NCBI RefSeq assembly: GCF_022701215.1
Contig: NZ_CP089976.1
Span: forward strand, 1,620,001-1,652,000
Reading direction: 5' to 3'
Source: Moraxella nasovis
GTDB lineage: Bacteria; Pseudomonadota; Gammaproteobacteria; Pseudomonadales; Moraxellaceae
DNA: 32,000 bases
Positions 25,938 through 27,152 of this stretch are shown here, piece after piece (position 1 is the stretch's first letter; every line of letters starts with the position of its first letter). The translations under genes and the position numbers were made by a program. The notes under the pieces are model-generated. The model worked only from the letters and a program-made list of their open reading frames with translations, was not told where the DNA came from and made no database searches.

Positions 25938-26708
25938 TTAATTGACAAGTTGTGGTATTGCCTGTTGTCTATCCGACCACTTAATGGGGTTTATATTGTA
26001 ATTAACCAAAGACTGTATGGAGCTACCGCTGATGGCATGGTCTGTATCATTTAATACCACATACAGCAGGGTGTCAGCTCGTCTTGTTTCTTTGGTGTCT
26101 GACCAACCAAATAAGATATGTTCAATATTACTTTTGGTTGGATTGTTGATGGTGTGCAGTAGTCGCTCTGGCTCTTGTTTTGAGTGCGGTATTAGAAAAT
26201 CAAAGTTAAAATTAAACCCTGATTGACCTGTTAAATTGACGTTTTGGGTATATCTTGCACCAATTTCATCAAGCCAATACTCCACATCTTCAAAAAAGAA
26301 ATTGGCAACATTGCTATTAGACATGGCAAACATATCGTTCACAGCCAACATGGCTTGGATAAAGCTATTTTTGCGTACTGGAAAATTTTGAGCATTTGCC
26401 ATTGTAACTAGGCAATCATCTTGTATCTTGACCCCAAAGCCATTTAGGATTTGTTGCAATAAAGCGGTACGTTTAGGTGTGTTAAATAGTACACCACTAG
26501 TTGCCAAATCATCTAAAATATAACCGCCATCACTAAATAACAAACCGTCTGGCATCTTTTGAATATAAAACTGTAAATAATCATTGTGACGGTCTAAATG
26601 GGGTGTGGTAATTTCTACCGTATCATCGTCCATATTTTTTAGACAAGTCTTATCCATAAGCCACGCTATGTAGCTGTCATGATATTGTTTGATATCATCT
26701 ATGAACAT
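25938..26708 (-). CDS. hypothetical protein, DUF1828 (N-terminal) / DUF1829 (C-terminal)-like; function unknown
   Basis: 256-aa ORF whose ATG (26706-26708) overlaps the upstream gene by 10 nt. The N-terminal ...VEITTPHLDRHNDYLQFYIQ... and C-terminal ...FNFNFDFLIP....PERLLHTIN....N..H.LF.W.D resemble the DUF1828/DUF1829 architecture from memory (unverified). The gene is AT-rich relative to its neighbours. Confidence 0.7.
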   Translation of the reverse strand: MFIDDIKQYHDSYIAWLMDKTCLKNMDDDTVEITTPHLDRHNDYLQFYIQKMPDGLLFSDGGYILDDLATSGVLFNTPKRTALLQQILNGFGVKIQDDCLVTMANAQNFPVRKNSFIQAMLAVNDMFAMSNSNVANFFFEDVEYWLDEIGARYTQNVNLTGQSGFNFNFDFLIPHSKQEPERLLHTINNPTKSNIEHILFGWSDTKETRRADTLLYVVLNDTDHAISGSSIQSLVNYNINPIKWSDRQQAIPQLVN

Positions 26709-27136
26709 GGGTGATACTCAATGGGGATTTGGAGAAATATTTTACCACGAATGTTGCAATGTTGGCAAAAGCTATCAAGATAATTAGCTAAGCTAGTGCA
26801 ATCACCAAAGATGGGCGGTACAGGATAAGCCCATTTTAATTCATATCCTTGCTTATAAACGTGTAAATGTGGGCAGGGTATTTCAGTATCATCTGGGTTT
26901 CTATGGGGTGGACCATTAACATCTAGGCGAACTAACAGCACATTTTTACGCACTCGTAAGGTGGTGCTGATTTTGCTAGGCTTAATGCGATTAGGGATAA
27001 TGTCTAGCAAGTACTCTTCTCTACCAATATCGTCTTTGATGTTGATTACTTTTTTGGTAAAGTCAAAATCAATTGGTTTGCCTAAAATATGCTTTAAAAT
27101 CTCAATAAAGGCTCTCGCCTGCTCGTCTGTTATCAT
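26699..27136 (-). CDS. hypothetical 145-aa protein with a His/Cys-rich motif (HRNPDD-x5-PCPHLH ... CQHC); function unknown
   Basis: The ORF is translationally coupled to the downstream gene. I prefer the ATG at 27134-27136, preceded by GGTGGTGAG (the ORF-track start at 27148 is a GTG). I recognise no characterised family. The motif [31 protein letters not shown] looks like a metal or active site. Confidence 0.7.
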   Translation of the reverse strand: [145 protein letters not shown]

Positions 27137-27152
27137 CTCACCACCCACCCAT

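Follow-up and report, generated by a model that had tools for sequence, protein, structure and literature searches.

A PDC-M24-family gene pair in a prophage remnant of Moraxella nasovis is a candidate anti-phage module

Results and discussion

We analyzed a 32,000-nucleotide (nt) stretch of the Moraxella nasovis genome (assembly GCF_022701215.1, contig NZ_CP089976.1, positions 1,620,001 to 1,652,000 of the forward strand; hereafter the window), focusing on two overlapping minus-strand genes, here called A and B. Based on their gene structure, family membership and genomic context, we consider it on balance probable that A-B is a prophage-derived two-protein anti-phage module, of the superinfection-exclusion or abortive-infection type and belonging to the PDC-M24 family of PADLOC, which has outlived the prophage that carried it. 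A first-pass annotation, made from the sequence without database searches, had read the pair as a prophage-derived defense or exclusion, or toxin-antitoxin-like, module. All of the computational tests proposed there supported this reading; the defense activity itself stays a prediction, and the novelty was overrated, as the pair is, judging by its profile matches, already catalogued as the PADLOC candidate PDC-M24 and is not a new discovery. The elements of the cassette are as follows.

26699-27136, minus strand: gene A, 145 amino acids (aa), ATG start; DUF6978, PADLOC PDC-M24A.
25938-26708, minus strand: gene B, 256 aa; DUF1828 followed by DUF1829, PADLOC PDC-M24B.
26699-26708, minus strand: overlap of the A stop and the B start, 10 nt (ATGTTCATAG), the site of translational coupling.
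25706-25741, no strand assigned: bidirectional intrinsic-terminator hairpin closing the cassette, from RNA folding.

The two reading frames, their 10-nt overlap and the hairpin were all confirmed as first described. An alternative in-frame GTG start of gene A at 27148 would give 149 aa, adding MGGE, and the closest relatives of A begin at the equivalent position with ATG (MGGVLM...). The hairpin has an 11-bp stem and a folding energy of -15.8 kcal/mol (z = -5.4; 0 of 200 shuffled sequences were equally stable), and it is preceded by an A-run and followed by a U-run; a simple terminator scan did not pick it up because of its long loop. An Rfam scan over the whole window matched no family.

Family membership of A and B

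Protein A matched Pfam DUF6978 (PF22398) over its full length (E 7.5e-35, 120.6 bits against a cut-off of 29.6, profile positions 1-133 of 133) and PADLOC PDLC04538, i.e., PDC-M24A (E 9.5e-40, residues 1-132 on profile positions 1-137 of 146). Protein B contains DUF1828 (83.4 bits, residues 35-123) followed by DUF1829 (105.8 bits, residues 161-247), both above the Pfam gathering threshold, which is the architecture that the first-pass annotation had suggested, and matched PADLOC PDLC04539, i.e., PDC-M24B (E 9.1e-99, residues 6-255 on profile positions 4-254 of 255). No PADLOC model besides PDC-M24 matched A or B at E <= 1, NCBIfam has no family for either protein, and PHROGs places each of them in families of unknown function. 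In sequence, A and B are each 100% identical to entries of M. nasovis; an exact-sequence look-up with B gave no record. Scans of Pfam, NCBIfam and PHROG matched the pair to no housekeeping, structural or known regulatory family, in agreement with the expectation that profile searches would assign no mundane function.

DUF6978 comprises 1,480 representatives at 50% clustering, distributed among bacteria, archaea and phages, and almost all of them are stand-alone proteins of 140-165 aa. Longer DUF6978 matches were rejected as informative domain fusions, being mis-called low-complexity N-terminal extensions or A-B read-throughs; one 402-aa apparent fusion of A (P0101) may be a frameshift or an assembly product.

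Placement behind phage repressors

Homologs of B with 23-35% identity are found in 18 temperate phages of Staphylococcus, Streptococcus and Lactobacillus. In all four that were inspected, i.e., Staphylococcus phages 37 and phiSP119-3, Lactobacillus prophage Lj965 and Streptococcus phage Javan197, the genes lie on one strand in the order repressor, 0-4 small open reading frames (ORFs), an ORF of ~151 aa, B and integrase. The ~151-aa ORFs are DUF6978/PDC-M24A proteins, and the phage-borne pairs match PDC-M24. An intact CI repressor lies upstream of A-B in a Moraxella equi prophage, and past this repressor comes a divergent Rha/Ant gene. In three unrelated viral contigs (L102, L105 and L109; L numbers denote the loci that we retrieved), a CI-like repressor with a helix-turn-helix (HTH) and an S24 domain ends within a few nt of A, and HTH_3 (8) and Peptidase_S24 (5) are the commonest families among neighboring ORFs in viral contigs. 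A-B is thus located behind, and on the strand of, an immunity repressor in the window and in at least eight independent phages or prophages. The neighborhood predicted from the single M. nasovis locus therefore recurs in unrelated temperate phages and prophages, where the pair sits between repressor and integrase. A precedent for this position has been published for S. aureus phage 80alpha, whose lysogeny module is expressed from cI onward as a single large transcript that also covers the validated defense gene tha-1 (PMC11087260).

The M. nasovis locus itself is a decayed version of this arrangement.

27293-27595, minus strand: repressor pseudogene, frame 1, covering part of the HTH and the linker of a CI/LexA-type phage repressor, from BLASTP to M. 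equi CI.
27153-27365, minus strand: repressor pseudogene, frame 2, start of the S24 peptidase, internal deletion and last ~14 residues, from alignment to M. equi CI.
27640-27720, no strand assigned: divergent promoter-like region 5' of the repressor remnant, from consensus hexamers.

The ORF at 27293-27595 gave weak HTH_3/HTH_19 and phage-repressor PHROG matches and aligned by BLASTP with residues 36-120 of the M. equi prophage CI, an intact protein of 234 aa with HTH_3 and Peptidase_S24 domains. The ORF at 27153-27365 has 52% identity to residues 101-154 of the same protein and then jumps to residues 218-231 (64%). Based on these alignments, the upstream repressor is a pseudogene with a frameshift, an internal deletion of ~63 aa and a truncated N-terminus; its stop (27153-27155) lies 17 nt 5' of the ATG of A, which agrees with the decayed CI/LexA-like repressor first noticed there. 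The prophage remnant covers ~2.2 kb between pyrC and an IS110-family element and consists of the promoter region, the repressor pseudogene, A, B and the terminator; integrase is absent from it. Both A and B of the window keep every residue that is invariant in the family alignments. The cassette is intact while the prophage around it has decayed, so that the claim of a module outliving its prophage holds, and the locus can be regarded as a natural experiment.

The closest relative for which flanks are available (L098) has 76% nucleotide identity to the window, and the shared segment extends only over 27153-25969, exactly A and B, with unrelated flanks on both sides. Relative to L098, dN/dS is ~0.05 for A and ~0.04 for B, in keeping with intact genes. 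Since only A and B are common to the two loci, the pair moves as a self-contained cassette, independent of its flanks. The lower G+C content that had been taken from a few sampled lines was recovered (38.0% for the cassette, 41.6% for the window), but equal-sized windows have a standard deviation of 2.8% and 8.9% of them are as low or lower, while pyrC (49%) and argG (46%), the genes chosen for comparison, are at the G+C-rich extreme. Low G+C was therefore discarded as a sign of foreign origin, being too weak.

Obligate pairing of A and B

To characterize the pairing, metagenomic loci were collected from A by a back-translated pattern scan with the A-homolog alignment, which gave 476 confirmed loci. 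The best 80 of the 476 were fetched, and their six-frame translations were searched with hidden Markov models (HMMs) of A and B. B lies directly 3' of A on the same strand in 77 of the 77 informative loci among these best 80; the remaining three contigs end within 70 nt of A. At the junction between the A stop and the B start, examined in 83 related loci, a 4-nt ATGA overlap was found in 47 and a 1-nt overlap in 23, and the rest are within a few nt. As the junction is kept this tight across 83 loci, translational coupling is a trait of the family and not an accident of the M. nasovis genome.

Look-ups starting from B homologs gave a similar picture. Six of nine such loci contain intact A and B, including L122, where A was missed by the gene caller. 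In L009, from an archaeal metagenome-assembled genome (MAG), A is reduced to its last 15 codons (5950-6003; YCNIINPPLIQRGII and the stop) beside a DDE transposase, and in L125 to its last 32 residues (4903-5001) after insertion of a repeat element; B is intact in both. L005 contains no trace of A, and B follows a gene for a methyltransferase-HNH fusion. Among 20 IMG/VR loci with full-length B, 13 carry an intact, co-oriented A upstream of it; in L103 a frameshift has divided the upstream A between two reading frames; and in five (L106-L108, L111 and L114) A is immediately downstream and convergent, tail-to-tail, without translational coupling. In the last, L095 (5877-6008), an insertion has truncated A to its 3' end, and B is full-length. 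A is thus adjacent to B in 18-19 of the 20 loci (18 intact, one split by the frameshift), and the five convergent loci indicate that adjacency survives a change of orientation. The co-occurrence of the two genes as adjacent pairs, which the first-pass annotation had made the first thing to check, is therefore a general feature of the family.

The pairing is asymmetric. A was never seen without B, and B tolerates the loss of A, remaining intact where insertions have cut A (L009, L125 and L095). Because B is intact in these three independent cases after A was destroyed, A is unlikely to be an antitoxin restraining a lethal B. The persistence of B without A is compatible with A as an activator of B, and also with A as a toxin neutralized by B. 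The latter leads to the strongest alternative to the anti-phage module, namely a toxin-antitoxin (TA) or addiction module stabilizing the prophage or island, with A as a small metal-dependent toxin and B as its neutralizing DNA-binding partner, the reverse assignment being less likely. The compact, translationally coupled and mobile cassette would fit such a module, and an A that never occurs without B, beside a B that outlives A, is the asymmetry expected of A as the toxin; a protein of the HipAD system that contains DUF1829 has also been proposed as an antitoxin-like DNA-binding partner. Against this, scans of Pfam, NCBIfam and PADLOC matched neither A nor B to a toxin or antitoxin family, the strongly conserved A lacks any match to a toxin-like fold, and B would be an atypical antitoxin, with 256 aa, two domains rich in conserved acidic residues and a nuclease fold. 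We consider a TA module unlikely on this evidence, while noting that TA function and defense can coexist and are not mutually exclusive.

Defense genes and other chromosomal neighbors

Outside prophages, the anti-phage reading of A-B is consistent with several of its neighborhoods. Two type I restriction-modification (R-M) operons contain the pair: in L004 it separates hsdR from hsdS/hsdM, and in L126 hsdS from hsdR. B adjoins hsdR in the archaeal MAG locus L009. In other loci the pair adjoins a PIN (L123), a SIR2 (L124) or an Abi_alpha gene. Among 128 neighbor ORFs, as raw counts, type I subunits are the commonest family, and AAA_15/21, TIR_2 and RVT_1 are also present. Defense neighborhoods of the kind that had been anticipated were thus found. 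In one lineage (L006/L007, 1092-5201), the A-B pair lies between a 1369-aa protein with only a weak DUF8371 match, which comes first, and an AAA_14/DUF4143 ATPase; such a locus may be part of a larger, uncharacterized defense island.

These loci raise the question as to whether A-B could instead be an accessory or back-up nuclease of R-M, for example a guard of type I R-M that fires when R-M is inhibited, its uptake by phages being secondary. PrrC, in the prr locus, fires in this way when R-M is inhibited. The positions of the pair within L004 and L126, the proximity of B to hsdR in L009 and to the methyltransferase-HNH fusion in L005, and the high frequency of type I subunits as neighbors are in line with this idea. 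Most loci, including the window and all phage lysogeny modules, have no R-M genes nearby, and because type I R-M loci host many unrelated defense genes, adjacency need not mean functional dependence. A role tied to R-M thus appears improbable, and more so than addiction.

Protein A

The AlphaFold model of A (pLDDT 93.4, pTM 0.88) consists of a beta-meander sheet packed by terminal helices. It had no significant structural match in PDB or BFVD, and a profile search found no sequence relative of A among PDB sequences; going by the model, the fold of A is new and has no known structural relative. Across 149 family representatives, K15, R61, L68, R70, H78, N80, P81, D82, H90, H92, Y94 and C127 are near-invariant, and so is the motif H-x-N-P-D...H-x-H-x-Y; H78, N80, H90 and H92 are each kept in at least 146 of the 149. 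The compact His/Cys motif first noticed in A is therefore real as regards its histidines and C127, which are conserved family-wide; C88 is kept in 62 of the 149 representatives only. This conservation suggests a candidate metal site formed by three histidines (H78, H90 and H92), together with N80, D82 and C127. The pattern H-x-H-x3-E resembles cupin motif 1; no cupin structure was matched, and the assignment of A as a cupin was rejected.

Protein B

The model of B has a pLDDT of 90.8. Its C-terminal half follows an alpha-beta-beta-beta-alpha-beta order (helix 137-148, strands 154-160, 166-173 and 182-187, helix 192-204, strand 214-219). Foldseek matched it with E-values of 1e-4 to 2e-2 to Card1/Can2/VC1899, Bax1, PspGI, XisH, NucS, BstEII, MspJI and McrC, and with a probability of 1.0 to Card1/Can2, PspGI, XisH, NucS, Bax1 and MspJI; whole-chain TM-scores were low, the best per-target values being 0.60-0.62 for XisH. 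A profile search of PDB sequences with B returned only noise. DUF1829 has been placed in the Pfam clan PDDEXK (Table S5, PMC13092281). As modeled, the C-terminal domain of B has a PD-(D/E)xK (restriction-endonuclease-like) nuclease fold, so that what was offered as speculation in the first-pass annotation is borne out at the level of fold.

Residues E/D140, D141, D170, E181 and R/K182 are kept even in the phage homologs at 23-35% identity, as are D39, D/E43, D60 and D125 of DUF1828; the DRHND motif is not kept in these distant homologs. Given a lysine of (D/E)xK that is off its canonical position, catalytic competence of B is no more than plausible. In the model, DUF1828 begins with a helix, continues as an antiparallel meander of four strands and ends in more helices. 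Prompted by the Card1/Can2 matches, we considered DUF1828 as a CARF-like sensor, which was ruled out by its topology, and no CARF family was matched. Seven IMG/VR contigs (L115-L121) encode stand-alone DUF1828-only proteins of ~130-160 aa, without DUF1829 and without a DUF6978 neighbor, indicating that DUF1828 also exists as an independent module.

Proposed mechanism and points that weigh against it

Given the recurrent synteny with repressors, we propose that in intact temperate phages A-B, immediately downstream of the CI-type repressor, is presumably co-transcribed with it in the lysogen, and that in consequence the resident prophage would arm its host against other phages. B would be the probable effector, combining its PD-(D/E)xK-fold domain (E140, D170, E181-R/K182) with an N-terminal DUF1828 rich in conserved acidic residues. 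A would act as its obligate small partner, made in a fixed ratio with B through translational coupling, and most likely as a regulator, sensor or targeting subunit of B. We also entertain, with rather less confidence than the anti-phage role as such, the tentative idea that PDC-M24 is a mechanistically new immune system, in which A, a new-fold His-triad metalloprotein, senses an infection cue or the loss of R-M and switches on the DUF1828-PD-(D/E)xK nuclease of B, the module being conserved from archaea to Firmicutes phages and placed routinely in the cI operon of temperate phages.

Several observations count against an anti-phage nuclease module. PDC entries are described as unpublished candidates in papers using PADLOC; our literature searches on DUF6978 and PDC-M24 turned up neither a functional study nor an experiment on any member, and the name PDC-M24 was not found in any paper. 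In HipAD, the only validated defense context of DUF1829, the protein containing this domain is modeled as a DNA-binding, antitoxin-like partner and not as an effector. Within B itself, E181-R/K182 is followed by [ILV] and not by a lysine at +2, and D170 is replaced by N or E in a few members; because the lysine of (D/E)xK is off its canonical position and D170 varies, nuclease activity is not assured. Many A-B loci have housekeeping neighbors (dxr, rseP, MFS transporters), and the defense neighbors of others are raw counts. The promoter-like sites at 27640-27720 are no more numerous than expected from shuffled sequence or chance, and these promoter calls were dropped as evidence. The dN/dS values relative to L098 are silent on selection since the prophage decayed because dS is saturated. 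Finally, position 96 of A (codon 26849-26851), a glutamate in 131 of the 149 representatives, is a glutamine in the window and the Moraxella clade. This position lies within the motif H-x-H-x-Y-R-E-G; should this glutamate serve as a metal ligand or a general base, A of the Moraxella clade could work differently or be attenuated.

If an anti-phage function of PDC-M24 is validated, it would add a nuclease-based defense family and give three DUF families a function. Phage 37, where the pair corresponds to ORF031/ORF014, Lj965 and the M. nasovis cassette are practical entry points for studying this candidate. In genome annotation, entries named 'DUF6978' and 'DUF1828 domain-containing protein' are best treated as a single unit.

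Promoter region and flanking elements

The AT-rich region 27640-27720 contains short palindromes (e.g., ATAACAGAGTTAT) as well as promoter-like hexamers that stand back to back on the two strands. On the minus strand, TTGATT-18-TATAAT at 27717-27688 has 10 of 12 consensus matches, as does ATGACA-16-AATAAT at 27648-27675 on the plus strand. This region would be the likely source of the A-B transcript, and it is a possible relic of a cI/cro-type immunity switch. The elements bounding the relic are listed below.

27925-29177, minus strand: IS110-family element, copy 1, bounding the relic; DEDD_Tnp_IS110 and Transposase_20.
25654-25679, plus strand: short repeat, copy 1, on the pyrC side of the relic.
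27847-27872, plus strand: short repeat, copy 2, on the IS110 side of the relic, in direct orientation to copy 1.

A second, inverted copy of the IS110-family element lies at 29266-30518, and its 1253-nt arm is 100% complementary to copy 1. The two copies are head-to-head, 88 nt apart, between the relic and argG, and their perfect identity suggests a very recent duplication or gene conversion. The short repeat (core TTATTTGTTGGGTTTCGTACCAAAGC, with similarity reaching over ~70-90 nt) occurs just three times in the 32-kb window, always in the same orientation, with 0.07 chance matches expected. Two of the three bracket the 2.2-kb relic as direct repeats, and the third, at 29241-29266, abuts IS110 copy 2. 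This repeat could be an IS110 target resembling REP or MITE sequences, or an att-like scar.

Comparison with known systems

In common with Card1/Can2, NucS and MspJI-type enzymes, B has a separate N-terminal domain before a C-terminal restriction-endonuclease-like core. It differs from them in its TM-scores of only 0.3-0.4 and in the catalytic lysine, which is off the canonical place; from Card1/Can2 in particular it differs in DUF1828, an antiparallel beta-meander with helices and not a Rossmann-like CARF domain. No signaling-nucleotide synthase is associated with A-B.

XisH, the excision factor of the fdxN element, gives the best per-target superposition for the DUF1829 domain of B. XisH and XisI factors control excision. 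A role of A-B in the phage life cycle, with B as an XisH-like recombination accessory factor controlling lysogeny or excision together with the neighboring integrase, would draw on this superposition (TM 0.60-0.62) and on the position of B directly upstream of integrase in Firmicutes phages, but it is very improbable and was set aside, as the pair is common without integrase (in R-M operons, at chromosomal sites by housekeeping genes, in archaeal MAGs and in the window), most loci have no recombinase nearby, a XisI partner is absent, Pfam gives no XisH match, and the mobility of A-B as a unit does not depend on its flanks.

Regarding sequence families already linked to defense, E. coli proteins of 250 aa with DUF1828+DUF1829 carry the label 'predicted novel defense gene' in the DefensePredictor tables, with log-odds of ~5.6-6.3 (PMC13092281); these proteins are not in the domain table of validated systems (S8) or in the other supplementary tables that were checked. 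The same study describes DUF1829 as 'newly implicated in defense' through DS-6B/HipAD, in which DUF3037+DUF1829 accompanies a HipA kinase. HipAD/DS-6 thus resembles the window pair in that its second protein contains DUF1829, and it is the sole experimentally validated defense context of this domain. The two differ in that DUF1829 of the window is combined with DUF1828 and DUF6978, with no kinase.

In gene arrangement, A-B resembles lambda cI-rexA-rexB, the model invoked in the first-pass annotation, with two accessory genes that immediately follow the immunity repressor on its strand, and also Tha of S. aureus phage 80alpha, which is likewise placed between repressor and integrase. RexA and RexB act as a sensor plus a membrane channel. 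The Pfam, PHROG, NCBIfam and PADLOC scans gave no Rex assignment for A or B, and the pair has no sequence or fold relation to lambda Rex or Tha; B is a soluble protein with a predicted nuclease fold, and not a membrane channel or a HEPN RNase. The closest correspondence is to PADLOC PDC-M24 itself, both of whose HMMs are matched by the window pair over their full length, in the same gene order and adjacency.

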